Position numbers and translations under genes: made by a program. Under the pieces are notes generated by a model. It was not told the DNA's origin, did no database searches, and saw only the letters and a list, made by a program, of their open reading frames with translations. This document shows, one piece after another, positions 36,300 through 64,000 of a DNA stretch of 64,000 nucleotides. Origin of the DNA: an uncultured Candidatus Saccharibacteria bacterium (GTDB taxonomy: Bacteria > Patescibacteriota > Saccharimonadia > JAGOAT01 > CAYZIP01); the NCBI GenBank assembly GCA_964478695.1, contig CAYZIP010000003.1:4143-68142 (forward strand). Reading direction: 5' to 3'. Position 1 is the stretch's first letter. Every line of letters starts with the position of its first letter.

Positions 36300-36303
36300 A
36301 TAT

Positions 36304-37635
36304 CTAAATTGAAGTTTTTATAACTTCGCCGATGTACTTTTTGTTTAGCCAAAAGCATTTTTTAATTAGCTGAGTACCTTGCGGTGTTGGTAGGGTGTCC
36401 TTTGCGTTCTTGGCTTTAGGGCGAACGTGGGCAACATTGCTCTCAGTAGATTTTGGCAAGTCAGTAGCGTCTATGGCAACTCGTCGCTTAGTCTCCTCCC
36501 ATACACGGCGAGCCTCTTCGCGGTCGATAAACGGCATATTCCAATAGTTTACCTTAGCTAACCGTAGGTCGCCGTTCTCGTCCACTCGAAAAATAACTAG
36601 TAAGAACTTTTGCTCTATTTTGTTGAAAAAACTACTGTCCTCCCACTCCTCGTCTACTATATCGAGGTACTTAAAAGTAGGAAATGACATAGCCTCGGCT
36701 GGTAGCCAGTCTTTATTTACTCTGATAGTTTTTAGTTCAACACCAGCCTTATCAAGCTCTGGCACAGTTCTCTTTGTACCGCCTAGAATACGCATAGTCA
36801 GGCTTCGATAAAACCCTTTGTCGTTTTTACCGTGTTTATGGAAATCTAAGAGACTAGAAATCTCTTCAACAGTTTTACCGATGTAAGGCTTAAACTTGTT
36901 TTGGGTAGCGTCCTCGATTGTAACAGTAGCTGTTACGTCTAATACACCGACCTCTCCCGTATGACCCTCAATAATACGATTAACATAACTTGGCTTGAGC
37001 GAGAACGCCCTAGACTTTGCTGGTATATCAGAGTTCGGTTGTTGTCTTAGTTTTTCCTTCTCACCACCAGAACCTTTTCGACAAGCACCTAGATAGTAAG
37101 TGTCTCCCTCTGATAGTTCGTGAGCAAGTCCGTTCTCAATTTTCTTACGTATAGTTTCCCAGTCACGCTTTATAATCTCTAGGTCTTTCTCTGGAAACTC
37201 AAACAAAATCGGGTGCAATACAAATCGCCTATCAAAAATCGACAACTCTTTTTCGTACAGATAAAACAGCAACAGCATCAGACTACATTTTTCCATTAAC
37301 GACGAAGTATCCCACCTCTCGTTAACTAGGTTCATATAGTTAATCATTGTCAAAACAAGGCGTTCCTTTGCCTTGTAACTGCCGTCTGTTCTTTTTAGCA
37401 CTCCTGTAGTTTTTAGTTCTACTCCAGCGTCAGGAAAATCAGGAAGGTGCGTTGTATTGTCGGGCTGGTATCTGTAATAGTACCGTTCAACCATATTACC
37501 TAAGTCGCCCTTGTTGCTTATATTTTCGGCAACTCGGGACATATCCACTACTTCGGCGAGTGTTTTGCCAGAGAGACCACGAGCGTACTCTAATAGAGAC
37601 TGAGGAGAGCTTATATCATAAGTCGCTTGTGCCAT
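36304..37635 (-). CDS. Sau3AI/MutH-family type II restriction endonuclease with a two-domain architecture.
   Basis: LPDFPDAGVELKT at the N-terminus and a second degenerate copy, VPELDKAGVELKT, in the C-terminal half. This matches the Sau3AI duplication of the MutH fold. Confidence 0.65.
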   Translation of the reverse strand: MAQATYDISSPQSLLEYARGLSGKTLAEVVDMSRVAENISNKGDLGNMVERYYYRYQPDNTTHLPDFPDAGVELKTTGVLKRTDGSYKAKERLVLTMINYMNLVNERWDTSSLMEKCSLMLLLFYLYEKELSIFDRRFVLHPILFEFPEKDLEIIKRDWETIRKKIENGLAHELSEGDTYYLGACRKGSGGEKEKLRQQPNSDIPAKSRAFSLKPSYVNRIIEGHTGEVGVLDVTATVTIEDATQNKFKPYIGKTVEEISSLLDFHKHGKNDKGFYRSLTMRILGGTKRTVPELDKAGVELKTIRVNKDWLPAEAMSFPTFKYLDIVDEEWEDSSFFNKIEQKFLLVIFRVDENGDLRLAKVNYWNMPFIDREEARRVWEETKRRVAIDATDLPKSTESNVAHVRPKAKNAKDTLPTPQGTQLIKKCFWLNKKYIGEVIKTSI

Positions 37636-37709
37636 ATACTCAATTGTATCAAAAACATCGGTAAATGGGCTTGATCGAAAGCTATAAAATTGGTAAGATA
37701 GTTGTAAGT

Positions 37710-38963
37710 ATGGTAAAAAAAATCAAAGTCGTTGAGTTGTTTGCTGGTGTCGGGGGCTTTCGTATTGGTCTAGACAGAGCAAGTAACGACAAGTTTAAGT
37801 ATGAAACAGTTTGGGCTAATCAGTATGAGCCAGCAACCTCTCGTCAACACGCCTCAGAGGTGTATGTAGCACGTTTTGGTAAGAAGGGTTTTAGTGGTCG
37901 TGATATTGAAAAAGTTATAGAAGATGATTTCGATAGCATACCAGACCACGACTTACTCGTCGGTGGCTTTCCTTGTCAGGACTACTCAGTAGCAAGCACA
38001 CTTAAACACTCTCACGGTCTAATCGGTAAAAAGGGCGTATTATTCTGGTCAATCTACACTATTTTGCAACGCAAAGGCGATAAAGCACCTGACTACCTTT
38101 TTCTTGAAAATGTAGACCGCTTACTCAAGTCTCCAGCAAGTCAGCGTGGCAAGGACTTCGCTGTTATGCTCGCTTCGCTATCTGACCTTGGATATGCAAT
38201 TGAGTGGCGAGTTGTGAACTCTGCTGAGTATGGCTTTCCACAGAGGCGACGTAGAGTGTTCATTATTGGCTACAAGAAAGGCACTAAACTTTATGAGAAA
38301 GCTAAAAAAGCCGTTGCGAGCGAGTGGTTGACGAAAGACGGTGTACTAGCTGACGCCTTCCCCGTAGAGCCGACGCTATCAACTCACGAGGTTAAACTCG
38401 AAGGTACTTACGCTGACATTACGCAGAACTTCTCTGCTAATAAGCCAACTCTAAGCCCATTTGATAACTCAGGTTTAATGATAGACAGAGTGGTTATCAC
38501 GGGTAAGGTAAACCCAGTATACAGTGGCAAACATATGTCCCTAGGTGAAGTGCTTATTGACGAGAAAGATGTACCCGATGAGTTCTTTATACCCGAGGAC
38601 AAGCTACCTCAATGGACGTATTTAAAAGGTGCTAAAAAAGAGGAGCGTAAAACGGCAAGCGGACACGTTTATCATTATGCCGAAGGTGCTATGGTTTTTC
38701 CCGACGCATTAGATAAGCCGTCTAGAACGATTATCACAGGCGAGGGCGGTTCTGGAGCGTCTCGCTTTAAGCACGTAGTTAAAACACCGTCAGGTCGCTA
38801 TCGTAGGCTCGTACCACTTGAGTTAGAGCGACTTGATATGTTTCCCGACAATCACACCCAACTCGAAGGTGTTTCTGACGGCAAAAGGGCTTTCTTTATG
38901 GGTAATGCCCTTGTAGTTGGTGCTATCGAAAAGGTCGGGCACTCCCTCTCGAGAAAACGATAG
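37710..38963 (+). CDS. DNA cytosine-5 methyltransferase, a probable M.Sau3AI-like partner. The ORF opens at 37665.
   Basis: ELFAGVGG is motif I. GFPCQDYS is motif IV. ENV is motif VI. RRRVFIIG is motif VIII. It is divergent from the REase gene. Confidence 0.88.
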   Translation: MVKKIKVVELFAGVGGFRIGLDRASNDKFKYETVWANQYEPATSRQHASEVYVARFGKKGFSGRDIEKVIEDDFDSIPDHDLLVGGFPCQDYSVASTLKHSHGLIGKKGVLFWSIYTILQRKGDKAPDYLFLENVDRLLKSPASQRGKDFAVMLASLSDLGYAIEWRVVNSAEYGFPQRRRRVFIIGYKKGTKLYEKAKKAVASEWLTKDGVLADAFPVEPTLSTHEVKLEGTYADITQNFSANKPTLSPFDNSGLMIDRVVITGKVNPVYSGKHMSLGEVLIDEKDVPDEFFIPEDKLPQWTYLKGAKKEERKTASGHVYHYAEGAMVFPDALDKPSRTIITGEGGSGASRFKHVVKTPSGRYRRLVPLELERLDMFPDNHTQLEGVSDGKRAFFMGNALVVGAIEKVGHSLSRKR

Positions 38964-41965: not shown

Positions 41966-43780
41966 TTGATGGAGAATGAAAACCAAGAGCTGGATGTAAC
42001 AAAATTACGCTACGTCCTATACGCCAGAAAATCTACCGAAGACGAAGGTAGTCAAGTTAACTCTATCGACGACCAGATACGTATTTGCCTAGAGTATGCC
42101 AACAATCACGGACTACACATCGTAAAGGTTATCAAAGAAGAAAAATCTGCCAAGAAGTACGGCAATCGCCCCCAGTTCACGGAGATGCTTAAGGGTTTCC
42201 CGATACAATACGACGGTTTGCTAGCATATCACCCTGACCGAGTAGCTCGTAATATGCGTGATGCTGGCATAATTATCGACCTACTAAACCCCGAGAAAGC
42301 TCAGATTAAAAGTATGGCGTTTCCGACTGTGCAGTATGCAAATGACAGTAGCGGAAGGCTTACTCTAGCCGTGCTCTTTTCACTTGCAACGCAATTTTCT
42401 GAACATCTAAGCGAGGTTGTGAGGCGTGGCGTAAAAACTAAGCTCAATAAGGGTATATCGTCGGGTGCTCCAAAATGGGGTTACGAACGTAATGAGATTA
42501 GCGACTTTTATGAGCCTGACGCTAACTTCCAATACGTACAGCGAGCGTGGATGATGCGAGCCGAGGGTGAACGTATTGCTGATATTGTAAAGTACCTCAA
42601 TAGCCACGACGTGAAGCGTATCACCAAGATTACGAGAACCAATAAGAAGCAACGCACTATCAGACCAAGCCAAACGAGTATCACTAAAATGTTTGGCGAT
42701 AGTTTCTTCTACGGATTGCTTATACAAAAGGGTCAGGAGGTAGATTTACGCAAAGTTACTACCAGTTTCACGCCAATGATTGACGAGGAAACTTACGACC
42801 GAGTACAAGCAGTTTCCTACAGACGCTCTAGGCTCAAGCCGAAGTCTATAAAAGAGGGCATCTTCTATCCTTTTAGAAGTATGGTGTTTTGCGGTGTTTG
42901 CCACAGTGATACGCCAATGCGAGTGGGTAAAAACAAGAGCGGTGGTAGTGGTCACGTGCTGTCGTACCGTTGCGATAATCCAAACTGTAAGAGAACTGTT
43001 AAGAGTGTTCGAGCTAAGTACATACTTGACGGGCTCTATGATGCCCTGAAGACCCTCCAGCTCACCGACAAGGAGTACGAAACCTATAGCAAGAGACTAG
43101 ACGAGCTTACAGACGATAAAATTGACGAGCTACAGTCCGAACGACGAAGCCTCAATGGTGTTAAAAATGTAAAAACCAAAGAACGAGATGACCTCTCTCG
43201 TAAGTTCCGTGATATGACCGATAAGCACCCTTCGTATGCCGTCACCGAAACTGACATCACAGTACTTCACAATGAAATTATCGACATCGAGACGAGAGTA
43301 GCCGAAATTACCTCAAAACTAAGGAACACAGATACTATCAAGCTCACGAAGGAAGAGTTTTTGAACTTGGCAAAAACAGCGTACGACAAGATGAGAGCTG
43401 GAACTCCACTTGAAAAGGACATACTTGCACGAAAAATGCTTTTGAACCTATCCCTAAATGACGAAAGAGCTCCTTCCTTTATCTGGAAAGAGCCCTTTGC
43501 CACGGTGTTTGCTAACACCCAATCTTCTTTTGGTGCAATTTTACACTTTTGCGCGAACCGAATTCCAGCGCAGCTGCGAGTGAGTGAGCCGCGCCGCCTG
43601 TGCGGGCAAGCCCGCACGCGCCCCACCAGCCGCCCCCTTACCTTATTTTTTGAGATTTCCCCCGCCGAATTTCTTTTTTTATCTGAAAAGGGGTTGGCTG
43701 GTGGTTCGCCTACTGCAAGCAGTAGAGGCGGCACGGCTTTAGTCGGCATAGCCGACGCGCTACGCGCATCACTCCTGTAA
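41966..43780 (+). CDS. Large serine recombinase 1. The true C-terminus is probably near 43530 and the ORF reads on into the repeat.
   Basis: YVLYARKSTEDEGSQ contains the catalytic Ser. LAYHPDRVARN. A recombinase domain, a CxxC...C zinc ribbon and a coiled coil. The last 80 aa translate repeat DNA. Confidence 0.8.
   Translation: MMENENQELDVTKLRYVLYARKSTEDEGSQVNSIDDQIRICLEYANNHGLHIVKVIKEEKSAKKYGNRPQFTEMLKGFPIQYDGLLAYHPDRVARNMRDAGIIIDLLNPEKAQIKSMAFPTVQYANDSSGRLTLAVLFSLATQFSEHLSEVVRRGVKTKLNKGISSGAPKWGYERNEISDFYEPDANFQYVQRAWMMRAEGERIADIVKYLNSHDVKRITKITRTNKKQRTIRPSQTSITKMFGDSFFYGLLIQKGQEVDLRKVTTSFTPMIDEETYDRVQAVSYRRSRLKPKSIKEGIFYPFRSMVFCGVCHSDTPMRVGKNKSGGSGHVLSYRCDNPNCKRTVKSVRAKYILDGLYDALKTLQLTDKEYETYSKRLDELTDDKIDELQSERRSLNGVKNVKTKERDDLSRKFRDMTDKHPSYAVTETDITVLHNEIIDIETRVAEITSKLRNTDTIKLTKEEFLNLAKTAYDKMRAGTPLEKDILARKMLLNLSLNDERAPSFIWKEPFATVFANTQSSFGAILHFCANRIPAQLRVSEPRRLCGQARTRPTSRPLTLFFEISPAEFLFLSEKGLAGGSPTASSRGGTALVGIADALRASLL
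43745..43767. repeat. GC-rich palindromic motif GGCATAGCCGACGCGCTACGCGC, containing GTCGGC-ATA-GCCGAC. This is copy 1 of 3; the others are at 45579..45600 and 46228..46249, the last being a half site.
   Basis: Seen three times at module boundaries next to the recombinase genes. Confidence 0.6.
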
Positions 43781-44654: not shown

Positions 44655-44666
44655 GATAATAAGATT

Positions 44667-46213: not shown

Positions 46214-46377
46214 TGTTTTTATTATAACATAGCCGACACGCTCCACGCCGTGGTAAAATAGAAGTGGACACAATCTATTAGTAAAACGGCGATATTTTTG
46301 GCTTTAATAGCCGTCCCGTACAATGCAGTTTTACTGGATTGTGTCCAGCGGGGCGGCTATTTAAGTGGAGGGCAACT

Positions 46378-48012
46378 ATGATGGAACTACTGGTAAACAT
46401 AGAGCCGGTGTATCTCATCTATGTACGAAAAAGCACCGATGTCGAGGACAAGCAAATATTATCTGTCGCAGCGCAGATAATAGAGCTAAAAGAGTTTGCC
46501 AAGCGCATGGGCTTGCGTGTTGCGGGTGTCATCATAGAAAAACAAACCGCGAAAAAGCCAGGACGCCCGAAGTTTAACAAAATGCTGGAGCGTATAGAAA
46601 ACGGCGAGGCAAACGGCATTTTGGCATGGCTGCCCGACAGATTGTCGCGCAACAGCATAGATAGCGGGCGCGTTATTTATATGCTTGATGAAAATGTTAT
46701 CGCCGACCTGAAGTTCCCGCATTTTTGGTTTGAGAATACACCGCAAGGCAAATATATGCTGGCTAATGAGTTTAACAGTTCTAAACAGTATGTAGATAAT
46801 TTGTCGGTAAACACCAAGCGAGGGCTGCGCCAAAAGGTGCGCGAGGGGCATTGCCCGCGCCTTGCGCCTGTCGGGTATATCAATGATGTGCGGACGAAAA
46901 CGATATGGGTAGACAAACGGCTTGCGCCGATTGTTCGCCAAGCGTTTGAGCTATACGCAACTGACACAAAGACGCTGGACGATATTGCCGCCTTTTTGTA
47001 CGCCAATGGTATAAAAACGCGCGGGCGGCGCAGGGTTAAGGACGAGCCAAAATCTGCGGGCGGGCGGCAATGGCATGCGTCGCGCGTGAAACGAATGTTG
47101 CAAGATGTGTTTTATTACGGGCATTTTCGCTATGTGGACACGGTGCATGAGGGCAAGCATACGCCCATCATTGACAAACCACTCTTTGACAAGGTGCAGC
47201 GAGCACTTGCAGGGCGTGGACGCGCGCAAAAGCGCGCTACTGCCCCGCAGCCGCTTAATTTGCTGGTGCGGTGTGGGAATTGTGATTGTTTTGTAACTGG
47301 TGCGCACAAGATAAAGCGGCAGAAAAACGGCAATGTGCATGAATATACCTATTATCGGTGTACTCACAAGAAAAAGGCGGCGATGTGCCGCGAAAAGGAG
47401 GTACGCGAATATGTACTGGCTGGACAACTCGTCCCGATTTTGCAATCTTTTGCCTTGCCAAAAGATTGGCGCGACTATATGGCGTCAAGGCTGGAGCAAG
47501 ACAGAGCCGAGCTAGAGAATGAAAGCAAGGCGATGATTGACACGCTGCGTGGTGAATTGGACGCCATAAGCGCGAAACTCAAACGACTTTTTGATATGTA
47601 TTTGGACAGTGATATTGACCGCGAGGACTACAAAGACCGCCAAGCCGAGCTGATGAGCGAGAAAAAGTCGCTTGAGGGCAAAATCGAGCGCGTTCTGGCG
47701 AACGCGGGGTACTGGATTGAACCTATGCAGCAATGGTTAGAAACTGCCGTTTCTATCTGTACGATAGACGAAAAATCGGAGCATAGCGAGATTGCGCGGG
47801 CTTTTCGCCAAATTGAAGGATTGAACCTAAAAATGAAAAACGAAAAAGTCGTCGCGGAGCGCGACGCCAAATCTCATTCCCCCCAGAATAACAGCTGGCT
47901 GGCGCTGCGCGCCGCCAGAGAAAAAACCGCCCGAATGGGCGGCAATTTCCGTAATTCTGCCATTTTGGTGCGGATGAAAGGACTTGAACCTTCACAGGGT
48001 TACCCCCACTAG
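46378..48012 (+). CDS. Large serine recombinase 2. The ORF opens at 46339. The C-terminal roughly 50 aa translate IR-B' and tRNA DNA.
   Basis: LIYVRKSTDVEDKQ, AWLPDRLSRN, a zinc ribbon and a coiled coil. GGAGGG lies upstream of ATG 46378. Confidence 0.8.
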   Translation: MMELLVNIEPVYLIYVRKSTDVEDKQILSVAAQIIELKEFAKRMGLRVAGVIIEKQTAKKPGRPKFNKMLERIENGEANGILAWLPDRLSRNSIDSGRVIYMLDENVIADLKFPHFWFENTPQGKYMLANEFNSSKQYVDNLSVNTKRGLRQKVREGHCPRLAPVGYINDVRTKTIWVDKRLAPIVRQAFELYATDTKTLDDIAAFLYANGIKTRGRRRVKDEPKSAGGRQWHASRVKRMLQDVFYYGHFRYVDTVHEGKHTPIIDKPLFDKVQRALAGRGRAQKRATAPQPLNLLVRCGNCDCFVTGAHKIKRQKNGNVHEYTYYRCTHKKKAAMCREKEVREYVLAGQLVPILQSFALPKDWRDYMASRLEQDRAELENESKAMIDTLRGELDAISAKLKRLFDMYLDSDIDREDYKDRQAELMSEKKSLEGKIERVLANAGYWIEPMQQWLETAVSICTIDEKSEHSEIARAFRQIEGLNLKMKNEKVVAERDAKSHSPQNNSWLALRAAREKTARMGGNFRNSAILVRMKGLEPSQGYPH

Positions 48013-48051
48013 CACCTGAAGCTAGCGTGTCTACCATTCCACCACATCCGC
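47966..48051 (-). tRNA. tRNA-Leu (anticodon CAG), with a long variable arm.
   Basis: GCGGATGTGGTGGAATGGTAGACACGCTAGCTTCAGGTGCTAGTGGGGGTAACCCTGTGAAGGTTCAAGTCCTTTCATCCGCACCA. Confidence 0.85.
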
Positions 48052-52393: not shown

Positions 52394-53986
52394 ATGCATT
52401 GGGGAAAAATATTAGCAGATAAAGTATTAGACAATTTTGGCGATCAAGACATATACACCACAGCAGCCGGAATTAGCCCCTCGGGAATCATTCATTTTGG
52501 TAATTTAAGAGATATTATCACTGCTTATGTGGTGTCCGAGGCCCTAAAAGCAAAAGGTAAAAAAGCTCGTTTAATATTTTCATGGGATGATTTTGATAGA
52601 TTCCGTAAAGTCCCTGCTAATATTGACCCTAGTTTTGAGCAATATATAGGCCTGCCTTTAGTAGATGTACCTTGTCCTGATGGCAAGTATAGCTCTTATG
52701 CTCATAAATTCGAGTCTGAATTTGAGAAATCTTTACTAACCATGGGCATAGAAACAGAATATCGTTATCAGAGTCAAAAATATCGGGCTGGAGATTATGA
52801 CCAAATGATCATTGATAATATGCGTAGTAGACTAAAGATAGCTGACATATTACTGTCTATGATGTCTGATAAAGCTAAGGCCGCTAAGAATATTGATATT
52901 AAGCAATATAGAGAGAATTATTATCCCATTAGTATTTACTCACGCTTTAGCGGCAAAGATAAAACCAAAGTTTTAAGTTATGATGATGGCTCCAAGGTTA
53001 CTTACCTTTGCTTAGAAACCAATAAGCAGGATACCATTGATCTAAAAAAAGATAGAGTGGTAAAGCTAGGATGGAAAGTGGATTGGCCTATGCGCTGGGG
53101 CTATGAAGGAGTTGTTTTTGAGCCAGGTGGCCATGATCACGCCTCTCCTGGCAGTAGTTTTGATACATCCAGTCGTATTGCCAAAGAGGCCATGGGGCTA
53201 ACTCCTCCCTTATTGCAAGAATATAAGTTCGTGGGGCTACAAGGCCTTGGTGCCAAAATGTCAGGATCAAAAGGAGGGGCCGTCTCTCCTAGTGAATTAT
53301 TAGATATATATACTCCAGAGATGCTCAAATGGCTATATATTGGCAAGGCTCCCAACCAATCTTTTGAGCTCTCTTTTGGCAAGGAAATATTTAGACAATA
53401 CAATGACTTTGATCAAGCTATATTAGAATTTAAAGAAGCAAAGACAGCAGACGATATTAGAGATTTCACCATATCATTGGCCGGGGCTAATCATATTGAT
53501 GGGAGTAAGCAGGTGTCATTTAGGCAGCTGTTAGGACTGGGGCAAATAGTGAGCTGGGATCTTGATAAGCTGATGGAGGTTTTAGATAAGGTAGATATTA
53601 AGTATGATCCAAAATCACTTAAAGCCAGAATGGCTAGGGTTCGCAATTGGCTAGATAAATATAATCAACAGGAAAAGATTGTTTTAATGGATTCTGTTAA
53701 CAAAGAATATGTCACAGGTCTAAGTATTAGAGCTAGGAATGATGTCTTGCATTTGAGAGATTATCTGGCACAAAATCAGTCTGCTTCTATGATAGAGATA
53801 GAAGAGCTACTATATGCTATTCCAAAAACAGATGGATTGAGTGAACAAGAGCTCAAGGGGGCTCAGAAGCAATTCTTTGTAGATGTATACAATTTATTGA
53901 TTAATAAAGATGCCGGGCCTAGGCTAGCTACTTTTTTATGGGCTGCTGACAGGGGCAAAATATTGTCTTGTCTATCGATTGATTAG
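52394..53986 (+). CDS. lysK: Class I lysyl-tRNA synthetase.
   Basis: HWGKILADK...AAGISPSGIIHFGNLRDII...RLIFSWDDFDRFRKVP closely matches spirochaete and archaeal class I LysRS. KMSGSKG is the KMSKS motif. Confidence 0.8.
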   Translation: MHWGKILADKVLDNFGDQDIYTTAAGISPSGIIHFGNLRDIITAYVVSEALKAKGKKARLIFSWDDFDRFRKVPANIDPSFEQYIGLPLVDVPCPDGKYSSYAHKFESEFEKSLLTMGIETEYRYQSQKYRAGDYDQMIIDNMRSRLKIADILLSMMSDKAKAAKNIDIKQYRENYYPISIYSRFSGKDKTKVLSYDDGSKVTYLCLETNKQDTIDLKKDRVVKLGWKVDWPMRWGYEGVVFEPGGHDHASPGSSFDTSSRIAKEAMGLTPPLLQEYKFVGLQGLGAKMSGSKGGAVSPSELLDIYTPEMLKWLYIGKAPNQSFELSFGKEIFRQYNDFDQAILEFKEAKTADDIRDFTISLAGANHIDGSKQVSFRQLLGLGQIVSWDLDKLMEVLDKVDIKYDPKSLKARMARVRNWLDKYNQQEKIVLMDSVNKEYVTGLSIRARNDVLHLRDYLAQNQSASMIEIEELLYAIPKTDGLSEQELKGAQKQFFVDVYNLLINKDAGPRLATFLWAADRGKILSCLSID

Positions 53987-55305: not shown

Positions 55306-55381
55306 GGCGACTTAGCTCAGTTGGTAGAGCAGAGGCCTGAAGAGCCTTGTGTCGTTGGTTCGAATCCATCAGTCGCCACCA
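55306..55381 (+). tRNA. tRNA-Phe (anticodon GAA).
   Basis: GGCGACTTAGCTCAGTTGGTAGAGCAGAGGCCTGAAGAGCCTTGTGTCGTTGGTTCGAATCCATCAGTCGCCACCA. Confidence 0.85.
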
Positions 55382-57062
55382 TTTTATACATATGCGGGTG
55401 TAGCTCAGTTGATAGAGCGCTTCCTTGCCAAGGAAGAGGCCCCGAGTTTGAGTCTCGGTACCCGCACCATTCGCAACGTAGCGCCTGTAAAAGGGCGCTT
55501 TTTATCTGTTGTGGGCAGGTTTTAACCTTACCCAACTCGTTTCTAAAGCGTTTTGCGTTATTTTTAACTGGAATTAACCATTCATCTGGGGTAATAGTAA
55601 GTTTTCCGTCTAATAATACTGGGTTTTGACCGATTGCTAGCAGTATCTCTTTTTTGTCTGCAAACTCGCCATTTACGAACTTATTAGTTGCTCCTGTGAG
55701 TTTTAGGAACGTATCACTCATGAAGTCGTACCAGCTTTCAACTTTCTTTGCAGTATCAGCTTGCTTCTTATGAAGTTCTTTTAATTGACCTTTAAGCTTA
55801 CTGTTTTTAGAAACAAATGTTTCCTCATCTACAAGCCCACGAGTGGACATATCAAGTAAGCGGTCTAACTGGTTCTCAATATCTTGAATAGCTTTACTCT
55901 GCATTTCAATGGCATTATCACGCTCTGGCTTTTCTTCCTGTAGCATTTCGTTTAAAGCTTCCATGCTCCACTGATACAGTTGTGGCGATAGTTCGTATTC
56001 GTTTAGTAGCTTTTCGCATTGCTCATAAAGGTCATCTTCTTTTATCATCTTACGTTGACTACAGTTAATAGTGCTGCTCCTGCGAGTACAATGATAGTAA
56101 ACGTGCGTATTACTACCACCGTCTTTAAGCTTTCGCTCTTGGCTCTGTGCTGTAACCATACAGCCACACTCACCACAGCGTATAAGCCCTCTTAGAGCGA
56201 ACTGCCTACGTGTAGCGAACTTCTTAGCTGCCTTTGAGCCTAGAAGCGTCTGAATGCGGTCAAACTCCTCTTGAGTCATTAAAGGTGGGTAGTTTGCAGG
56301 ATACATTTTTTCAGGGTCATGTGGGTCTGGAACCCAGCCAGCGTACCTGACGTTATTAAACACTCTGTATAAAGAAGCTCTACCGAGTGGACCACCACCT
56401 CTCTTATTGTGCTTTAGCGTCCGATAGCCTTTTTCTTCATTTAACCACTTGAGTATAAGAGGAACACTATAGTTACCAGTCAACATCATATCTACGGCTT
56501 CTCTTAGTAGTGGAAAGCGCAACTCGTCTTTATATACTGTTTTCTTGATTCGGTCATTTAAGTAACCCTCTGGCGCACAGCCTGTTAATCCGCCATTCTT
56601 GCGCTTCTGCTCATTGCCACGCTTTACATCTTTGCTTAACTTGGCTGAAAAGTACTGTGATTGGCTCATAGTGAGCTGTAACATCATTATGCCTTCTGGG
56701 GAGTTATCAAAGGTGTAGTTAGCAAATGCTAGGTCTTTAATGATTCCACGTCTTATGCGATACGTAAGGGCTGCTGCGTCCTGTTCATTCCTGGACAGTC
56801 TGTCAGGGTGCCATGCCACTATTCCGTCAATCTCGCCTTTATCAAGCATTTCTATTATCTGCTTAAATACTGGTCGCTTGTCAGGCTCAAAAGCACTTTT
56901 GCTCTCGTCTAAGAACCTGACGATGTTTAATTTGGGGAAGCGTTCTTTGATTTTATTCTTTTGGGCTTCCTTTGATAGAACTTGTCGTTCTTCGTCTTCT
57001 GTAGATTTGCGTACATACGCAACGTATTTTAGGTTATTTAGTTTATTGTTTTCGTAATTCAT
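55317..57062 (-). CDS. Large serine recombinase 3. The C-terminal 60 aa or so are read-through across the terminator and across tRNA-Gly and tRNA-Phe on the opposite strand.
   Basis: YVAYVRKSTEDEERQ, VAWHPDRLSRN, a CGECGC zinc ribbon and a coiled coil. The tail ...DSNSGPLPWQGSALSTELHP... is a typical anti-tRNA translation. Confidence 0.75.
   Translation of the reverse strand: MNYENNKLNNLKYVAYVRKSTEDEERQVLSKEAQKNKIKERFPKLNIVRFLDESKSAFEPDKRPVFKQIIEMLDKGEIDGIVAWHPDRLSRNEQDAAALTYRIRRGIIKDLAFANYTFDNSPEGIMMLQLTMSQSQYFSAKLSKDVKRGNEQKRKNGGLTGCAPEGYLNDRIKKTVYKDELRFPLLREAVDMMLTGNYSVPLILKWLNEEKGYRTLKHNKRGGGPLGRASLYRVFNNVRYAGWVPDPHDPEKMYPANYPPLMTQEEFDRIQTLLGSKAAKKFATRRQFALRGLIRCGECGCMVTAQSQERKLKDGGSNTHVYYHCTRRSSTINCSQRKMIKEDDLYEQCEKLLNEYELSPQLYQWSMEALNEMLQEEKPERDNAIEMQSKAIQDIENQLDRLLDMSTRGLVDEETFVSKNSKLKGQLKELHKKQADTAKKVESWYDFMSDTFLKLTGATNKFVNGEFADKKEILLAIGQNPVLLDGKLTITPDEWLIPVKNNAKRFRNELGKVKTCPQQIKSALLQALRCEWCGYRDSNSGPLPWQGSALSTELHPHMYKMVATDGFEPTTQGSSGLCSTN
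55394..55469 (+). tRNA. tRNA-Gly (anticodon GCC).
   Basis: GCGGGTGTAGCTCAGTTGATAGAGCGCTTCCTTGCCAAGGAAGAGGCCCCGAGTTTGAGTCTCGGTACCCGCACCA. Confidence 0.9.
55479..55506 (+). terminator. Rho-independent terminator AGCGCCC-TGTAAAAG-GGGCGCT followed by TTTTAT, after the tRNA-Phe/tRNA-Gly pair.
   Basis: A GC stem followed by a T tract. Confidence 0.55.
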
Positions 57063-57193
57063 TTTTTAAATCCGTTCTTTAATCCGTATAGGCAGTTCCT
57101 AACTGTTATATGGACATTTATATTATAGTTTGTCAAAGTGGTTGGGTACAGGGTGTTATCTGGTGCGGTAAACACCCTGCGTCCTATTTTGTT

Positions 57194-58450
57194 TTAGACT
57201 TTCCATTTAGGGTAAATCCATTTACTGCGCTTATCTCCGTAAAGGGGTGCTTCGTAGTCAATTAGTCCACTAGCTTCTAGTTGAGGAATGACCTGTTTAC
57301 GCAATTCATCGTAGCCGAGGAGTTTTCCTGTCTTTTCAACGTAGTGCTTGCTAAGAGTGCTAATACTGAACCCAGTTCTTACTTTTGTGTCTGGATTGTG
57401 CAACTCTTTGTATAGCTCAACTATGAAATCTTGGTAAAATCGCAGTACTGTAGGTGGAACTCCAAGTTGCTGGCTCTCACTAATTTGCTCCCAAAGTGTA
57501 ATCGCTTTTTGTACATCTTCATTGGAAGCTAAATAAGTACCATCAGATTGTTTTCTGTGCCATATATTGAGGAGCGCAATAGCTTTTATGAGTTGTTGAA
57601 CATGGGTGAATGCTCTTGAATCTCGTTCCTGTAGTCTTCCGAACTTTATAAACTTATCTCTAAGCTCATCATTATCAGGAAGTTTAATGTATCTTACTTT
57701 TTCATCTCTTATAGCGACTACTCGTTCCATAAGATACTTTCTTTCAACTTTAGATTTCAGCCATTCGTTAAAAGCTTCTTCATCTCTACCACGCCTATCT
57801 TGGAAGACAATCGTTTCAGCTATTTTGCGCTGTGACTGTTCTGGACTAAGTAGTAACTGGCGTGTTTGTTCCTGCTCATTTATTCGCAATGAAGCGGAGC
57901 AATAGAAGATTGCTGGAAAGCCGATTATTTTAATTTTGTCTGTTTTGTTCGTACCGTTCTTTGTTTTATTCGTGTAAAGGTGTATCTGTTCAAAACTATC
58001 GTGCGAAGCAATTGACCTTAAACGCTCTTGAACTTTTTGGTCTGGTAGTTCGTAGAAAATGAGTATCTTATTCTCTAGAACCAGATTGCGGAAGCCAGTA
58101 TCTTTGTCCACTTCACCATGTTGATAGAACAATGCTGTTGGGCTTGAACCACTAATCTCAATCTTATCTTCGTGAGGGAACAGCTTAGCTACCTCTTTAG
58201 TGATGTACGTTTTGCCAGACGAACTCGGTCCATTCAGACTTATATTAAGTTGGCTGTCGTATGTGTACGCAGATAGCATTCCTAGAAAGGCTATTGTCTT
58301 GCACAGATAGTCTTCCTTGATTGTTAGCGAAAGTATTTCCGCTAACTCATCTAGTTCCATTTCTGGGTAAGGCTTTGTACTTAGTTCGGCTTGAGCTTCA
58401 TCAGGCGCACTGCTGATGTAACCGTCAAAGGCAGTGTTAGCTTGTTGCAT
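57194..58450 (-). CDS. P-loop NTPase, a putative phage/plasmid replication (primase-helicase C-terminal-like) protein.
   Basis: Walker A GPSSSGKTYITKEVAKLF. A Walker B-like ILIFYELPD. It lies in a mobile-element context. Confidence 0.4.
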   Translation of the reverse strand: MQQANTAFDGYISSAPDEAQAELSTKPYPEMELDELAEILSLTIKEDYLCKTIAFLGMLSAYTYDSQLNISLNGPSSSGKTYITKEVAKLFPHEDKIEISGSSPTALFYQHGEVDKDTGFRNLVLENKILIFYELPDQKVQERLRSIASHDSFEQIHLYTNKTKNGTNKTDKIKIIGFPAIFYCSASLRINEQEQTRQLLLSPEQSQRKIAETIVFQDRRGRDEEAFNEWLKSKVERKYLMERVVAIRDEKVRYIKLPDNDELRDKFIKFGRLQERDSRAFTHVQQLIKAIALLNIWHRKQSDGTYLASNEDVQKAITLWEQISESQQLGVPPTVLRFYQDFIVELYKELHNPDTKVRTGFSISTLSKHYVEKTGKLLGYDELRKQVIPQLEASGLIDYEAPLYGDKRSKWIYPKWKV

Positions 58451-58637
58451 ATTGCACCTCGCAAGATTTCATACCTTTTAAGCTTCTTAAGTATTGCTTT
58501 AGATTTTTATTTAATTCTAAATCCCTATAAAGTCCATTGTCGTTCAGTGAGATTAACATGAGTGCCATTGCTTGGTTTTCTATGTTGTGTTCTCTTAGTT
58601 CGTACTTGTTTAATGCGTTCTTAATTGTGCTGTTCAT
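58437..58637 (-). CDS. Small hypothetical protein.
   Basis: Overlapping small ORFs in an element operon. Confidence 0.25.
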   Translation of the reverse strand: MNSTIKNALNKYELREHNIENQAMALMLISLNDNGLYRDLELNKNLKQYLRSLKGMKSCEVQYATS

Positions 58638-58833
58638 TGCTGAACTCCTTTTCGTAAGTTTGGTAAAGTTTTATGCCTACTAGCCGAAGTATTGCTCTCC
58701 CTGCTGCCTGTGCTTTTTCTGTGTCGCATTCAATGTCGTGTTGCTGTTTTAGTAGGACTTTCAGCTTCTGAATGCTCGTGTCACTAATTGTCATAGTGTC
58801 CCCCCGAATGAAATTCTTTATGAATGCTTTCAA
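58621..58833 (-). CDS. Small hypothetical protein.
   Basis: Overlapping small ORFs in an element operon. Confidence 0.25.
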   Translation of the reverse strand: MKAFIKNFIRGDTMTISDTSIQKLKVLLKQQHDIECDTEKAQAAGRAILRLVGIKLYQTYEKEFSNEQHN

Positions 58834-59056
58834 GTGCTTGGTAGAACCAATATGGCTTTACTCTCATTCTGCGTTTTTCAAATAATGAAACCAGCCGAAG
58901 CGCACTTTGATTTTTCTTGAACGTATACATGTAGTTTCCTTGACCAATCTCTTTGCATGTCACAACTGGGTGTTCTTTGCTTACCAGTGTTGCTGCCAAT
59001 ATGATGTCAATCGTTACAAGGTATCCGTCCTTATTTAGTATTGTGTTTTGGGACAT
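58784..59056 (-). CDS. Small hypothetical protein.
   Basis: Overlapping small ORFs in an element operon. Confidence 0.25.
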   Translation of the reverse strand: MSQNTILNKDGYLVTIDIILAATLVSKEHPVVTCKEIGQGNYMYTFKKNQSALRLVSLFEKRRMRVKPYWFYQALESIHKEFHSGGHYDN

Positions 59057-59247
59057 ATCGTCCTCCTTTATTTAGTTAATTATTGTTTGTGTAATCGCTT
59101 GTCCTTTCTGCCTTGCGCAACCGCTTTTAACTGATTACATTTATAGTTTTTCAAAAAACAAAGGAGCCTAGGGTAGGCTCCGAAACATGGCGATTAAGCC
59201 ACGATTTTATAAGTGTTTACTTACGATAATCTGCGATTTTTTACGAT

Positions 59248-60135
59248 TTAATCACGAATCGTATTTAGTCGTAATTTGTATGATTTTAGTTCATTACCAG
59301 TCAAAGTCTTTTCAGGAGTGAAGCGAACATTAGATTTAGTAGTACCCTCAAAGAAGATTTTCTTTAGTTCTTTATCAAAGCGAGAAGCTCTAACAAGTTC
59401 GGTCATATCATTTTTAGTTTTACAGTTATCAACGTTTTCTTGTATATCGTTTTTGTTTATGGAAGTATCGTTGTGTACTTCTAGATAGTGCATGAAGTTA
59501 TATGCTGGGCTATCAAAACGCAGGGGGCTACCTAGTGGAACAAGCTCTTTGCCTTTAATACCTACGTATACTTGTGTGCCTTCAATTTTAGCGATTGCAG
59601 TTTCTTCTTTGTCGTCAGGAACACTGTCCGTCCTATTTACTTTTGCAATGTACTCTTGGCAAGTTTCATCTACAGACTTAATTGACTCAATAACTATAAA
59701 TCCCTTGATTGACATTGAGAGTATAGTTTCTAAAAATTTCTTGCTGTTGCTAGTCTGCTTGCCTTTAATCTCTCTAGTTACATCTGACGTACCAAGTTTG
59801 CTTATCACACGAGCTTCATGCTGGGCGTACAATGTGATTGAGTTGCCAGTCGGTGCGAACATACGATTGGTGTAGAAGTAATCAACATAACTGCGCACCA
59901 TGTCCTTAAACCACTTTGTATCGGCAGTTGTAACTGCGTTATCTATACTTTCAATTTTTGCTTCTGATTTAAGCTTTTCTAAAATTGCTGAACAATACTC
60001 AATATTATCTGGGTAGCTTATGTAGGCATTAAGCAAATCCTGTAGCTCATTTTGCTCGGCTTTAATATACCCACTAAGCAAAGCGTATATGTAGAGTAGT
60101 CGGCTATCCCAAAACTGTGTTATAGGCATTTTCAT
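59248..60135 (-). CDS. Hypothetical protein.
   Basis: A 295-aa ORF. Confidence 0.3.
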   Translation of the reverse strand: MKMPITQFWDSRLLYIYALLSGYIKAEQNELQDLLNAYISYPDNIEYCSAILEKLKSEAKIESIDNAVTTADTKWFKDMVRSYVDYFYTNRMFAPTGNSITLYAQHEARVISKLGTSDVTREIKGKQTSNSKKFLETILSMSIKGFIVIESIKSVDETCQEYIAKVNRTDSVPDDKEETAIAKIEGTQVYVGIKGKELVPLGSPLRFDSPAYNFMHYLEVHNDTSINKNDIQENVDNCKTKNDMTELVRASRFDKELKKIFFEGTTKSNVRFTPEKTLTGNELKSYKLRLNTIRD

Positions 60136-60236
60136 ATCTATGTTTCATTATATGCCATTTATTTGTGTCAGATAACTAAAGAGCTGTTTTTGCGATAATT
60201 AGAGTAGAGCAAATAACAAAACAAACAGGAGTTTTT

Positions 60237-60482
60237 ATGACAATCAAAAGGACAGTCGGCAGACCAGTTGAGATGAACTATAAAATAATGAGTAAACTAG
60301 AGGACGCACTAGAACATGGCGCAAGTGTTACGGAAGCTTGTAGATACGCTAAAATTAGCAGAGAAGGATTTTACAGGTATTACCGAAACGAAGAAGTCTT
60401 CAAGCAAAAAATGCAAATAGCTCGTGCAAACTATCAGTACGTTATCAAGATTGGTGGCATTATTAACGCAAGGATTTTTTGA
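60237..60482 (+). CDS. Small HTH-domain protein, possibly a regulator or a recombination directionality factor.
   Basis: GRPVEMNYKIMSKLEDALEHGASVTEACRYAKISREGFYRY shows a helix-turn-helix pattern. Confidence 0.3.
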   Translation: MTIKRTVGRPVEMNYKIMSKLEDALEHGASVTEACRYAKISREGFYRYYRNEEVFKQKMQIARANYQYVIKIGGIINARIF

Positions 60483-60823
60483 CGGAATTACCAAAAACTC
60501 ACTGTTCGGTCAGAGCAGAAAGACTTCTAAGCGTCACATAATTCTGTGCAGTTTACGAATGTTTAACTTTGCGTGGCTTTTGCGTGTAAGTTTTTAATCA
60601 TACTTTTAATCGCAGGAGTAGCTGGTGGCTTGATTTGTGACATGTCTGGTTGGCTTTTTAGCTCTTGTAGTTTTAAGTCCTTCATTACTTACAGTATATG
60701 ATGGAATGTATGTGCTTGTAGAGGGTTAATACAGGCGTTTTAAGCCCTGTTTAGCTACAAAGTGGAGTATATCTACTATTGTCCTACCAACAGAGGTGTT
60801 AATAGGTTACAATGTTATATAAT

Positions 60824-63800
60824 ATGGCAAGCTTATTTGGAAAAAACAAACTTCGTGAAATCGCTTCAAAACTGCAAACATCTGAGCTTGAAGATAAGAT
60901 TGCCCTCGTAAAGACATGGCACAACGATTATCACAACGGAAGTCTAAAAGCAGATAAAGAAACTTCTCGTGAGCAAGCCTACAATCAAGACTTCTTTATT
61001 AAGGTTTTAGGTTATAAAGAGAAACCTGCTGTTCCATACAGCTTTGAGCCAAAAGCCACTACAGATAAAGGTCAGTTACCAGACGCAGTACTTAGTCATA
61101 CTGACACGAGCAAAGACCTAAAGAATATCGCAGCAGTCGTTGAGTTAAAGGGTGCAAGCATTGAGCTTGACCGACCACAGCGTCGTGAGGGCAACATGAG
61201 TCCTGTACAACAAGGATTCAAATACAAAACCCAGTATCGTAACTGTCCTTTCGTAGTTGTTAGTAACTTTTGGGAGTTCCGACTTTATCACGACAACCAA
61301 CTGGATTATGAGCTTTGGACACTTGATGACCTCGTAGACCCAGAAGATGACTATCTAAAGTTCAAGACATTCTACACGTTACTACACAGCGATAATCTCA
61401 CTACCCCTAAGGGTGCAAGTAAGACCGAGGGTTGGCTCAGCGACATACGTTTTGAGCAAGAAGAAATCGGCAAGAAGTTTTACAAGATATATCGTGAAGC
61501 CAGACTTGAATTGTTGCGAGATATATACAGGCACAACGAAAACGTCAGAGCAGATATTGGTATAGGAATTGAGAAAGCTCAAAAGATTATTGACCGTATT
61601 GTCTTTGCTTGTTTCGCAGAAGATAGGGGCTTACTTCCAGACGATACTTTGAAACGTGTTATTCAAGCAGCCGACAACTCAACATTTGGTGGTTCGTTAT
61701 GGTCTACGTTTAAGGCATTCTTTGAAGCGATAGATGTTGGTAGTACTAAGCTAGAAATTCCTGACGGCTATAATGGTGGACTATTTGCCCACGACCAAGA
61801 ACTCAACTCACTAAAGATAAGTGATGAGTCCTTACGCAAAGTAGCCAACATTAGTGACTACAACTTTGTTGAAGATTTAAGTGTCAATATCTTAGGTCAT
61901 ATCTTTGAACAATCCATCAGCGACTTAGAGGAAATTAAAAGCAAGGTTGAGGAAAGCCAAAACCTAGACTCAATCCAACAATCACGTCGCAAGAAAGACG
62001 GTATATTTTATACTCCTGACTACATAGTTCGCTACATCGTAGATAATTCACTTGGTGCATACTTGCGTGACGAAGAAGAACGACTAAAGATTGAGTTCAA
62101 ACTTAAAGGTGACATTACTGACAAGAACTATGAGAAGCGTGAACAGCAAGCATATAACAAGTATCAAGAGTTCTTACAGAATGTAAAAGTTGTTGACCCT
62201 GCCTGTGGCTCAGGCGCATTTTTAGTTTACGTATTTGATTACCTACTAGCAGAAAATAAACGTGTAGCAAGTATTCTTGGTAACAACTTATTTAGTAGCG
62301 AAGATTACATTAGAGATATTCTAAAGAACAACATTTACGGCGTAGACCTTAATGAGGAATCGGTAGAAATTACAAAACTATCTCTTTGGCTAAAATCTGC
62401 TCAAAAAGGAAAGAAACTCACCACACTTGATAACAATATAAAGAGTGGTAACAGTCTGATTAGTGACCATGGCATAGGTACTAACAAGGCGTTTAACTGG
62501 CAGTCTGAGTTTAACGATATATTTAATAATGGTGGATTTGATGTTGTGATTGGCAATCCTCCTTGGGTATCTCTAGGTGGTAAGCATGGGCAGAAAGTCA
62601 GTGAAGCAGAGTTAAAGTACTATACTGAAAAATATGACGGCAATACTTACATGCCTAACTTGTTTGAGTACTTTATAAACCTAGGAACTCAAATACTAAA
62701 GCCCAACGGCTACTTTTCTATGATAGTACCTGACAGATTTGGCATAAATGGAGTATTTAGTAATCTAAGAAAACGAATATGGGAAAGCTACACACTGTCA
62801 GAAATTGTTTATAAGTGGGACTTTCCGTATATCGTTACGGACACAATGACATTCGTAATTAAAAAATCTCCAAGTTCCGTAAAAAGTATAAGAGTAAAAG
62901 CGAATCCTAAGGCAGATTTCTTGGTGCTTAAAGATAGTGAAGTAGACAAGTCTACCTACGAATTTAAATTATTCAGTTCATTGGAAGCAAAGACACTTGT
63001 AGACAAGCTAATGCGTGACAAGCATTCATTAAATGAAATCTCAAAAACAACATCTGGCTTCGGAGGTAAATCTAAGTTAATAACCAATCGTAGAGCTTCT
63101 ACATCTCAACGGGAAGTTCTCAAAGGACAGTCTATTGGACGCTATTTGATTAAAGAAAAACTATTCTTTGATTTCATAGACGAAAATATCACAGGCAGGA
63201 CTAGAGATGAAACTAAACTAGGCGCAAATCCAAAAGTGCTACTGAGGAAAACGGGTTCAGGGCTTATTGCTAGCTATGACGATAGTGGTGCATACCCAGA
63301 GCAGTCACTTTACTTCCTCTATAACTTCAAAGACAAAGTTAGTCCACTGTACATACTCGCAATACTAAACTCAAAACTAATGAACTGGCTTTACAGGTCT
63401 AATTTTATTACTAACGCAGACAGTACACCTCAGTTGAAAAATGTTGATTTGGATAAGTTTCCCATAGTACTTGCAAATGATGAACTTCAACAGAGAATAA
63501 CTACTGCCGTGCAAAGAATATCTTCTGCCACAAAGCAATTATATGATTCCTCAAAAAGAGTTGATGATTTAGTCATGTCTGAATTTAATGACGCTAAAGC
63601 CCCTTCAAAAATTACCTCATGGTGGGAGCTAGATTTTTCTGATTTCATAAATGCACTACATTCAAACATTTCACTTTCTCAAAAAGATGAACTTCTCCAC
63701 GTATTTAATAAATACCGAAAGGAATTCTCAGAGCTAAGTGACGAAATACAGAAGACCGACCAAGATATTGACCAACTCATATATCAGATTTACGAATTGA

Positions 63801-63835
63801 GTGACAAAGACATCAGTATTGTAGAAAAAGGCTGA
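60824..63835 (+). CDS. Type IIG/IIL (MmeI-like) fused restriction endonuclease and N6-adenine methyltransferase. The ORF opens at 60812.
   Basis: An N-terminal PD-(D/E)xK site (PDAVLSH...AVVELKGAS). MTase motif I VVDPACGSGAFLV. Motif IV VIGNPPW. A long C-terminal TRD-like region. Confidence 0.72.
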   Translation: MASLFGKNKLREIASKLQTSELEDKIALVKTWHNDYHNGSLKADKETSREQAYNQDFFIKVLGYKEKPAVPYSFEPKATTDKGQLPDAVLSHTDTSKDLKNIAAVVELKGASIELDRPQRREGNMSPVQQGFKYKTQYRNCPFVVVSNFWEFRLYHDNQLDYELWTLDDLVDPEDDYLKFKTFYTLLHSDNLTTPKGASKTEGWLSDIRFEQEEIGKKFYKIYREARLELLRDIYRHNENVRADIGIGIEKAQKIIDRIVFACFAEDRGLLPDDTLKRVIQAADNSTFGGSLWSTFKAFFEAIDVGSTKLEIPDGYNGGLFAHDQELNSLKISDESLRKVANISDYNFVEDLSVNILGHIFEQSISDLEEIKSKVEESQNLDSIQQSRRKKDGIFYTPDYIVRYIVDNSLGAYLRDEEERLKIEFKLKGDITDKNYEKREQQAYNKYQEFLQNVKVVDPACGSGAFLVYVFDYLLAENKRVASILGNNLFSSEDYIRDILKNNIYGVDLNEESVEITKLSLWLKSAQKGKKLTTLDNNIKSGNSLISDHGIGTNKAFNWQSEFNDIFNNGGFDVVIGNPPWVSLGGKHGQKVSEAELKYYTEKYDGNTYMPNLFEYFINLGTQILKPNGYFSMIVPDRFGINGVFSNLRKRIWESYTLSEIVYKWDFPYIVTDTMTFVIKKSPSSVKSIRVKANPKADFLVLKDSEVDKSTYEFKLFSSLEAKTLVDKLMRDKHSLNEISKTTSGFGGKSKLITNRRASTSQREVLKGQSIGRYLIKEKLFFDFIDENITGRTRDETKLGANPKVLLRKTGSGLIASYDDSGAYPEQSLYFLYNFKDKVSPLYILAILNSKLMNWLYRSNFITNADSTPQLKNVDLDKFPIVLANDELQQRITTAVQRISSATKQLYDSSKRVDDLVMSEFNDAKAPSKITSWWELDFSDFINALHSNISLSQKDELLHVFNKYRKEFSELSDEIQKTDQDIDQLIYQIYELSDKDISIVEKG

Positions 63836-63836
63836 A

Positions 63837-64000
63837 ATGAATATATACAAAAACGCTGCCTACAAAGTTTTACTAGAATCAGATAAGCCCCTTCATTATC
63901 GTGAAATTACAAAAAAAGCTCTAGATATGGGAATACTGGAAACCGTTGGCGCAACACCAGAAGCAAGTATGAACGCTCAAATTAGCGTAGATATAAAACG
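63837..64000 (+). CDS. Mrr_N/HARE-HTH-like protein, N-terminal part only; it runs off the right edge.
   Basis: MNIYKNAAYKVLLESDKPLHYREITKKALDMGILETVGATPEASMNAQI resembles the winged-helix N-terminal domain of Mrr-type restriction proteins. Confidence 0.35.
   Translation, partial: MNIYKNAAYKVLLESDKPLHYREITKKALDMGILETVGATPEASMNAQISVDIK

Follow-up and report, generated by a model that had tools for sequence, protein, structure and literature searches.

Large serine recombinases (LSRs), the serine integrases, are prized as tools for genome engineering and are regarded, to our knowledge, as enzymes which do not use tRNA genes. The 64,000 nucleotides analysed here (the window; contig CAYZIP010000003.1, from an uncultured Candidatus Saccharibacteria bacterium) contain, near their end, a tRNA-Gly(GCC) gene which is followed by an element with an LSR gene, rec3. 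It is highly probable, as far as sequences can tell, that this element is a 14.35-kb integrative defence island, probably replication-competent, which was inserted by its recombinase Rec3 at the 3' end of the tRNA gene in a Saccharimonadales-like (Patescibacteria) genome. Among described systems, the use of tRNA genes by serine integrases was stated by Mageeney et al. 2020 (PMC7192596) not to have been reported previously; it concerned 14 of 297 islands, and experimental proof was said to be needed. An LSR was present in 27 of 937 tycheposons, most of which use tyrosine recombinases (bioRxiv 10.1101/2020.12.28.424599). In the literature searched, the coverage of which was incomplete, no account was found of a clade of LSRs reserved for the CCA end of tRNA genes, of an LSR open reading frame (ORF) overlapping attP, of an embedded tRNA terminator, or of such elements in Saccharibacteria or the candidate phyla radiation (CPR).

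Results

Boundaries of the element

The element was followed beyond the window in a public contig of 22.9 kb (L001), which was found via the type IIG restriction protein of the element, is 100% identical to window positions 55392-64000 and adds 9.8 kb. The left junction, attL, can be read directly and consists of the body of tRNA-Gly, a core and the P' arm (...GAGTCTCGGTACC-CGCACCA-TTCGCAACGTAGCGCCTGTAAAAGGGCGCTTTTT), the tRNA gene's 3' half (3' strand of the acceptor stem and T arm) being its B arm. The right junction, attR, was read in L001 and consists of the P arm, the core and the native trailer and terminator of the tRNA (...AGTTTTAATTTCGTAGCTTAAAG-CGCACCA-AAGATTAGAATTAGAGCCCAAAAGGGCTTTTTT); this second CGCACCA is located at L001 14423-14429, equivalent to window positions 69814-69820 and thus outside the window. 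The length of the element is 14,351 bp, of which about 5.8 kb lie past the window. CGCACCA is the sole identity between attL and attR, whose arms are swapped as for hybrid sites, and the crossover is therefore to be placed inside these 7 bp. A scan for terminators showed a hairpin at 55480-55499, followed by a T-run, directly after tRNA-Gly, i.e., an element-borne terminator after attL, and another terminator beyond attR in what looks like the native tRNA trailer.

A BLAST search of the window and L001 for a repeated tRNA fragment gave no long repeat of the tRNA; the far copy was missed because the repeat is only 7 nt long. What revealed it instead was the homology between the P arms of L001, L004 (a Saccharimonadales contig) and L003, the locus in a Candidatus Saccharimonadales metagenome-assembled genome (MAG) which encodes the closest homolog of Rec3 (P0001, 93% identity). 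The sequence of L003 departs from the window directly after GAATGGTGCG, with no tRNA present, and its next 19 nt recur inverted at L001 14401-14419 and at the far side of the element in L004. The P arm and the P' arm are thus joined in L003 across CGCACCA, as an intact attP; this reading covers 20 kb of the 37.7-kb contig (JBGTMJ010000002.1). A second, shorter LSR gene (425 aa) is present at L003 11698-12975, convergent to the gene of P0001 and 63 bp past its stop; of the two sides of the intact attP, it occupies that of the P arm. Excision of the element in the window would be predicted to produce the attP junction TTCGTAGCTTAAAGCGCACCATTCGCAACGTAGCG and the empty attB junction GTCTCGGTACCCGCACCAAAGATTAGAATTAGAGCCC, where tRNA-Gly would continue with AAGATTAGAATTAGAGCCC...

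A preliminary description of the window had proposed a serine-recombinase element at the 3' end of tRNA-Gly which continues past the window, and had suggested an extension in search of the far att site; with LSR domains in Rec3 and both att ends found, this proposal is supported. The element had been given a start at 55306, which needs correction: it starts at 55463-55469; tRNA-Phe belongs to the host, as does the body of tRNA-Gly.

The recombinase and its C-terminus

Rec3 contains the domains Resolvase (PF00239, E=6.6e-21, residues 14-158), Recombinase (PF07508, E=4e-8) and Zn_ribbon_recom (PF13408, E=4e-8). In an alignment of 32 sequences the serine S20 within YVRKSTEDE and the zinc-ribbon cysteines C296, C299, C325 and C334 were invariant. 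Residues ~350-470 are alignable across the family; in LSRs, directionality is controlled by a coiled coil belonging to the zinc ribbon. A catalytic serine domain, a recombinase domain with a four-cysteine zinc ribbon, a short att core and hybrid attL and attR sites are defining features of an LSR, to which group Rec3 is assigned. Scores of 58-74 bits against the Ccr models are far below the cut-offs of 700-900 bits, and the cut-off for XisF was likewise missed by far; Rec3 is classified neither as XisF nor as CcrA, CcrB or CcrC.

As had been noted previously, the reading frame of rec3 crosses the terminator and the two tRNAs in antisense direction. It passes through the hairpin, the whole tRNA-Gly gene and the 12-nt spacer and meets its first stop, at 55317, after a further 65 nt within tRNA-Phe. 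Residue W532 was invariant among the 32 aligned homologs; its codon TGG (55467-55469) is the complement of the CCA of the tRNA. The 49 residues which follow are encoded by host DNA (tRNA-Gly, spacer and tRNA-Phe, read antisense) and are not conserved. Past the tryptophan, homologs bear unrelated tails, such as WCG, WCGSGDSNPWPRPWQGRALNN and WYTRQDSNLRPLAPQANALSS, each followed by a stop, which are antisense translations of different tRNAs. The long tail of Rec3 is an ordinary outcome, because this tRNA-Gly has no stop in that frame; the tRNA-Gly of L004 contains TGA, and the recombinase there ends with WCG. The tail WCE of homolog P0009 was considered as attP-type and was rejected, since it belongs to an attL on a tRNA-Gly containing TGA. 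In the excised state Rec3 is predicted to read 19 residues of the P arm, with the tail CALSYEIKTLLLREYQKTV ending in ...EWCALSYEIKTLLLREYQKTV before the stop, at a length of 551 aa. One cluster at 90% identity contains versions of 581, 552, 544 and 534 aa of the same enzyme. From these comparisons, the conserved Rec3 protein is taken to end at W532, with a tail which depends on the state of integration.

It had been suggested that the element either rebuilt the 3' region of the tRNA inside the recombinase gene or that the annotated C-terminus is an artefact. Each suggestion is right in part: rebuilding applies to the last 7 nt plus trailer and terminator, but not to the tRNA bodies, which are host DNA, and the tail past W532 is non-conserved and dependent on integration, but the read-through of the ORF itself is real. 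The alignment of Rec3 with the two other LSRs of the window, Rec1 (41966..43780) and Rec2 (46339..48012), which had been proposed for placing the true stop, is not suitable, since homology (27-31% identity) ends near residue 450; 2,558 closer homologs (E<=1e-10) served for this purpose instead.

Occurrence at other tRNA genes

From metagenomes and species-representative genomes 160 related loci were fetched, 106 of which could be evaluated, since their sequence included the C-terminal region and extended for 45 nt or more downstream. The 3' end of a convergent tRNA gene coincided to the base with the W codon in 73 of these 106 loci; in three more it was offset by 2 nt, in genes without CCA, where W becomes L. 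At least 17 tRNA species are used across the clade, and tRNA-Gly is occupied by related elements also in L004, L013, L113, L116, L118 and L166. Tails past W had a median length of 17 aa (range 2-69) in the integrated relatives; the whole tRNA was crossed by the ORF in 16 of 73, and tails of at least 49 aa were found in 3 of 73. The targeting of tRNA 3' ends in a fixed geometry, with an ORF that spans the crossover, is, judged from these loci, a property of the whole LSR clade.

Distant relatives (29-34% identity) show the same arrangement: in 27 of 38, a tRNA (Pro, Ala, Ser or Gln) in convergent orientation overlaps the gene end, and this overlap suggests that the architecture is older and wider than Patescibacteria. 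These loci (L130-L165) include MAGs labelled Nitrospira, Ignavibacteria and Gammaproteobacteria, for which binning errors are possible.

A terminator-like hairpin is a trait of the family: one was present within 55 nt of CCA in 53 of 69 distinct attL trailers, versus 11 of 345 control windows taken from within these genes. In the window, the final 7 nt of the tRNA, the new trailer and the hairpin with its T-run lie antisense to Rec3 codons ~520-532. The conserved peptide ...KSLLEALRxEW thus appears to double, at the DNA level, as terminator and P' half-site.

Geometry of the att sites

Eleven P arms were gathered blind to any motif, nine beside recombinase genes without a tRNA and two as attR arms (L001, L004). 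Counted from the W codon's first base, these arms have T-N-A-G/A-A-A-C in common at 22-28 nt; the T-loop of tRNAs, in antisense ATTCGAAC, is found at 16-23 nt. When a profile of tRNA T arms was moved along the 11 P arms, the best of 22 shifts was +5, a correlative result (the P arm of L001 was 2 nt short in this test, so that its raw best of +3 equals +5). This displacement matches the attP/attB rule for LSRs of Rutherford et al. 2013 (PMC3783163), according to which the zinc-ribbon (ZD) motif of the LI integrase lies 5 bp nearer to the centre in attB, compared with attP.

Fifteen further loci contained, 6-11.5 kb upstream, a P arm with the motif and with the tRNA's own 6-7 terminal nt. These are candidate attR sites, at tRNA genes for Met, Ser, Asn, Arg, Trp and Tyr and at three species of tRNA-Gly, and in 10 of the 15 a terminator was found just past the site. 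The DNA of the P arm is strongly conserved across subfamilies (...CGAAGTTAGAAC...), and so are its third codon positions (GAAGTTAGAAC), which points to a constraint at the level of DNA, not of protein; most simply, the excised-state tail W-x-x-I-L-D-E-V-R-T would be the translation of a DNA site. On the other side, GTAAAAG is found in P' of this element, at the distance typical of P; no clear pattern is seen in B' or in other subfamilies.

A mechanism can be proposed from these data. Strand exchange would take place at a 2-bp centre within CGCACCA. In attB the zinc ribbon would read the T-loop of the tRNA, and in attP the T-loop-like GTTAGAAC or TTAAAAC, 5 bp further out; such reading would explain both directionality and the moves between tRNAs. 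The bases of the acceptor stem beside the core would determine which tRNA is used, and the tail encoded by the tRNA would be tolerated junk. After excision, the circle would be replicated by the MCM-like helicase of the element.

Genes of the element

The order of genes proposed in the preliminary description was found as given (Table 1). The element in the window, L003 and L004 have a common backbone, which consists of the recombinase, a protein of 418-421 aa, three small ORFs and a protein of 293-297 aa, and their cargo is wholly different; at the same tRNA-Gly, L004 encodes a recombinase of 86% identity with an AlwI restriction-modification (R-M) system, DUF6119 and a HEPN protein. A constant backbone with differing cargo is what marks a mobile element, and the comparison of the tRNA-Gly locus in relatives, which had been proposed as a check, showed the opposite of an ancestral gene set shared by all of them. 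The higher GC content, which had been noticed by eye, is real but amounts to only ~2.5 points (38.5% in the element, 36% in the flanking host DNA).

Table 1. Features of the tRNA-Gly(GCC) locus and of the element as far as contained in the window (window positions)
Feature	Position	Strand	Basis or remark
tRNA-Phe(GAA)	55306..55381	+	ARAGORN; host gene, outside the element
tRNA-Gly(GCC)	55394..55469	+	ARAGORN; intact; integration target
Shared core CGCACCA	55463..55469	+	last 7 nt of tRNA-Gly, CCA included
P' half-site, element-borne trailer and intrinsic terminator for tRNA-Gly	55470..55505	+	terminator scan
Rec3 ORF, 581 aa	55317..57062	-	ORF call and Pfam
Rec3 conserved body, residues 1-532	55467..57062	-	Pfam and alignment
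Rec3 integrated-state tail, residues 533-581 and stop	55317..55466	-	not conserved
418-aa Walker-A protein, MCM-like AAA+ ATPase	57194..58450	-	Walker A motif GPSSSGKT
Three small overlapping backbone ORFs (66, 57-70, 90 aa)	58437..59056	-	synteny
295-aa backbone protein	59248..60135	-	syntenic orthologs of 293-297 aa in L003, L004
81-aa helix-turn-helix (HTH) protein	60237..60482	+	PHROG 4102, E=1e-9
1007-aa type IIG fused restriction-methylase (MmeI/Eco57I type), cargo	60812..63835	+	Pfam, PADLOC
247-aa HARE-HTH and PD-(D/E)XK-like protein, start only	63837..64000	+	ORF cut by the end of the window

Searches in Pfam, PHROGs, PADLOC and NCBIfam gave nothing useful for the 418-aa and 295-aa proteins, nor did a sequence search of the PDB for the former. 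A fold search alone was informative and showed an MCM-type AAA+ fold with a Walker A motif and a C-terminal helical or winged-helix part; this ATPase is the probable replicative helicase of the excised element. Two homologs of the 418-aa protein, P0220 and P0222, are fused to an N-terminal Toprim domain (DnaG-type primase), i.e., are primase-helicase versions. The three small ORFs are syntenic in L003, L004 and L166, were without family matches and are candidates for a regulator or a recombination directionality factor.

The cargo is predicted to consist of defence-type genes. The 1007-aa protein, previously regarded as an MmeI-like type IIG enzyme, was recognized as such by Pfam, in the order MmeI_N, MmeI_Mtase, Eco57I and TaqI_C (PF20464, PF20473, PF07669, PF12950), and by PADLOC (REase_MTase_IIG, E=5.6e-109); one polypeptide thus unites a nuclease at its N-terminus, an N6A methylase of the gamma class and a specificity domain resembling TaqI_C. 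The ORF which had been called Mrr_N-like is present, and its 247-aa product, complete in L001, has a HARE-HTH domain and a weak match to PD-(D/E)XK, which suggests a restriction-type winged helix, not necessarily Mrr_N itself. Beyond the window, Pfam, PADLOC and NCBIfam indicated a DUF2779/Cas4-like nuclease, a GHKL ATPase, ORFs of 181 and 83 aa and a weak Brig1-like glycosylase, followed by attR.

On the far side of attR, at L001 14430-18444 (GC 41%), an N6_N4 methylase and a ResIII/SNF2 helicase form a type III-like R-M pair. An analogous pair lies inside the element of L003; identity of the two modules, which would have shifted the boundary, was considered and rejected, since they are only 28% identical.

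Neighbouring features of the window

The locus is rich in tRNA genes (Leu, Cys, Phe, Gly), the order being partly syntenic with L004, and a host class I lysyl-tRNA synthetase (tRNA-synt_1f) is encoded at 52394-53986. Rec2 (46339-48051), which is 31% identical to Rec3, likewise shares DNA (47 nt) with its target, tRNA-Leu(CAG); directly after TGGTGC comes the junction, and the complement of CCA is not in the W frame. The last codons of Rec2 contain, in antisense, an element-borne terminator (GCCGCCC-ATTC-GGGCGG and a T-run). An inverted copy of only the last ~110 nt of Rec2 (37 codons, 89% aa identity) is present at 45430-45540 and is joined after TGGTGC to an arm which is not from a tRNA (AATTTTACACTTTTGCGCGAACC...); this orphan attP-like site may be a decayed element or the product of an inversion. 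Beside tRNA-Leu(CAG), a GC-rich (44%) composite island at 35000-47965 contains Rec1 and encodes, at 36304..37635, a MutH-like endonuclease and, at 37665..38963, a C5 cytosine methylase.

Discussion

Weighing of the evidence

Several points weigh against an island mobilized by Rec3. The activity of the element and of Rec3 is predicted here from sequence, and the crossover is resolved to the 7-bp core, not to a single dinucleotide. The attP of L003 could be the internal junction of a tandem array instead of an episome. No empty attB was found: the 3' half of this tRNA-Gly gave no match in a scan of contigs of species-representative genomes, and among the fetched loci all copies of tRNA-Gly(GCC) are occupied. 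An exact look-up of the predicted 551-aa Rec3 in a collection of 15 billion proteins gave no excised form. A clean mirror of the distal B/P motif was looked for in B' and P' and was not seen. The DNA beyond attR may be host DNA or else an older island at the same tRNA, in which case the locus would be composite.

The most serious competitor, although still rather unlikely, is the proposal that the exchange of tails is a built-in sensor: the new C-terminus of Rec3, or an mRNA whose 3' end is perfectly complementary to the abundant tRNA-Gly and tRNA-Phe, would silence or re-programme the integrase in the prophage-like state, by analogy with "suicidal" integrases of the SSV type or with integration-dependent immunity. 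It could perhaps explain why the ORF spans the crossover, with no earlier stop in any locus examined, why, in 73 of 77 tRNA-adjacent loci, the W codon keeps the frame of the protein body and why excised-type tails share a pattern like W-x-x-I-L-D-x-V-R-T. However, the integrated tails of 2-69 aa merely follow the sequence of the respective tRNA, and the conservation of third codon positions in the P arm argues for a constraint on DNA. The broadest formulation is, in our opinion, similarly doubtful, namely that of a clade of LSRs for tRNA CCA ends, centred in Patescibacteria but reaching other phyla, which hops between tRNA species because its zinc ribbon recognizes the universal T-loop, and in which the rewritten C-terminus and an mRNA made antisense to abundant tRNAs are a built-in switch between the integrated and the free state.

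That the element is a prophage and not a plasmid-like island appears very improbable; it might be a satellite. LSRs are common as phage integrases, and the 81-aa protein resembles the N-terminal HTH of terminase small subunits, and also of transposases. No genes for capsid, tail, portal, large terminase or lysis were detected in the 14.35 kb, where PHROGs gave no other structural match; the backbone is made up of an MCM-like helicase and small ORFs, and the cargo of defence genes.

Still less credence can be given to a crossover further inside the tRNA, at its T loop or anticodon loop as with tyrosine integrases, by which a long tRNA 3' fragment would be part of the element. Such fragments, of 23-42 nt, do occur at the recombinase in some relatives (L014/L112, L031, L033, L075), and these loci were considered as attP with a deeper crossover; 0.2-6 kb beyond the fragment the same tRNA is present again in full, which argues for tandem arrays from later insertions, and the attR described here has no more than 7 nt in common with the tRNA. 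A series of up to three P arms, in L088, L095 and L099, also points to tandem accretion. Junctions of the attP type could accordingly be either episomes or internal junctions of arrays.

Finally, immobile ancestral DNA beside a tRNA gene, with an accidental overlap by annotation, is hardly conceivable in spite of the identical integrated copy in three independent samples and the missing excised form of this copy in the protein collection, given the hybrid att sites with swapped arms, the 86%-identical recombinase with entirely different cargo at the same tRNA-Gly, the intact attP of the 93% relative and the displaced native terminator at the far end.

Significance

With the island reading preferred, the more than 100 natural attB/attL sites and the smaller number of P arms, in a register set by the structure of tRNA, should form a useful data set on how LSRs read DNA and how their specificity shifts. 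Candidate integrases with predictable sites would become available for Saccharibacteria and other Patescibacteria, which are genetically hard to manipulate. The elements also indicate a route by which reduced genomes may gain and exchange defence systems. For annotation, a warning follows: the same recombinase has been deposited with at least four C-termini (534-581 aa), which are set only by the DNA across the crossover. Coding sequence, att half-site and tRNA terminator overlap, all three, within ~35 nt.

Comparison with known systems

The integrases of A118/LI, Bxb1, phiC31, SPbeta (SprA) and TP901-1 possess the same three domains as Rec3, short att sites and a minimal core, and with the LI integrase (PMC3783163) the Rec3 clade appears to have in common a related distal motif of the P and B arms, displaced by 5 bp. 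Characterised LSRs target protein genes or intergenic sites, whereas Rec3 targets the 3' end of a tRNA; unlike the LSRs of phages and of integrative and conjugative elements, its gene extends across attP, and a tRNA terminator is formed by its last codons. SCCmec and other SCC elements contain LSRs (CcrA/B/C) and an MCM-like helicase, Cch, but their target is rlmH (orfX), and the Rec3 element differs from them by its tRNA target, cargo and hosts.

As in tRNA islands, tRNA-Gly is intact, and CGCACCA is repeated 14,351 bp away together with the native trailer and terminator. Islands with tyrosine integrases (Islander/TIGER class; NBU1 at the 3' end of tRNA-Leu) resemble the element in the restored tRNA, the tRNA-proximal integrase gene and tandem accretion, but the recombinase family and the mechanism are others, and their repeat comprises tens of nt, compared to 6-7 nt here. 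Integrases of the SSV type in archaea (PMC7253208) have, like Rec3, attP inside the ORF and a product that is altered by integration; they are tyrosine enzymes whose gene is split into two inactive halves, whereas in the serine recombinase Rec3 residues 1-532 stay intact and a short tail is swapped. The tycheposons of Prochlorococcus (bioRxiv 10.1101/2020.12.28.424599) are likewise small cargo islands at tRNA genes with replication genes of their own; their hosts are cyanobacteria, and neither an overlap of recombinase ORF and attP nor a core at the CCA end, as in the element at tRNA-Gly(GCC), has been described for them.

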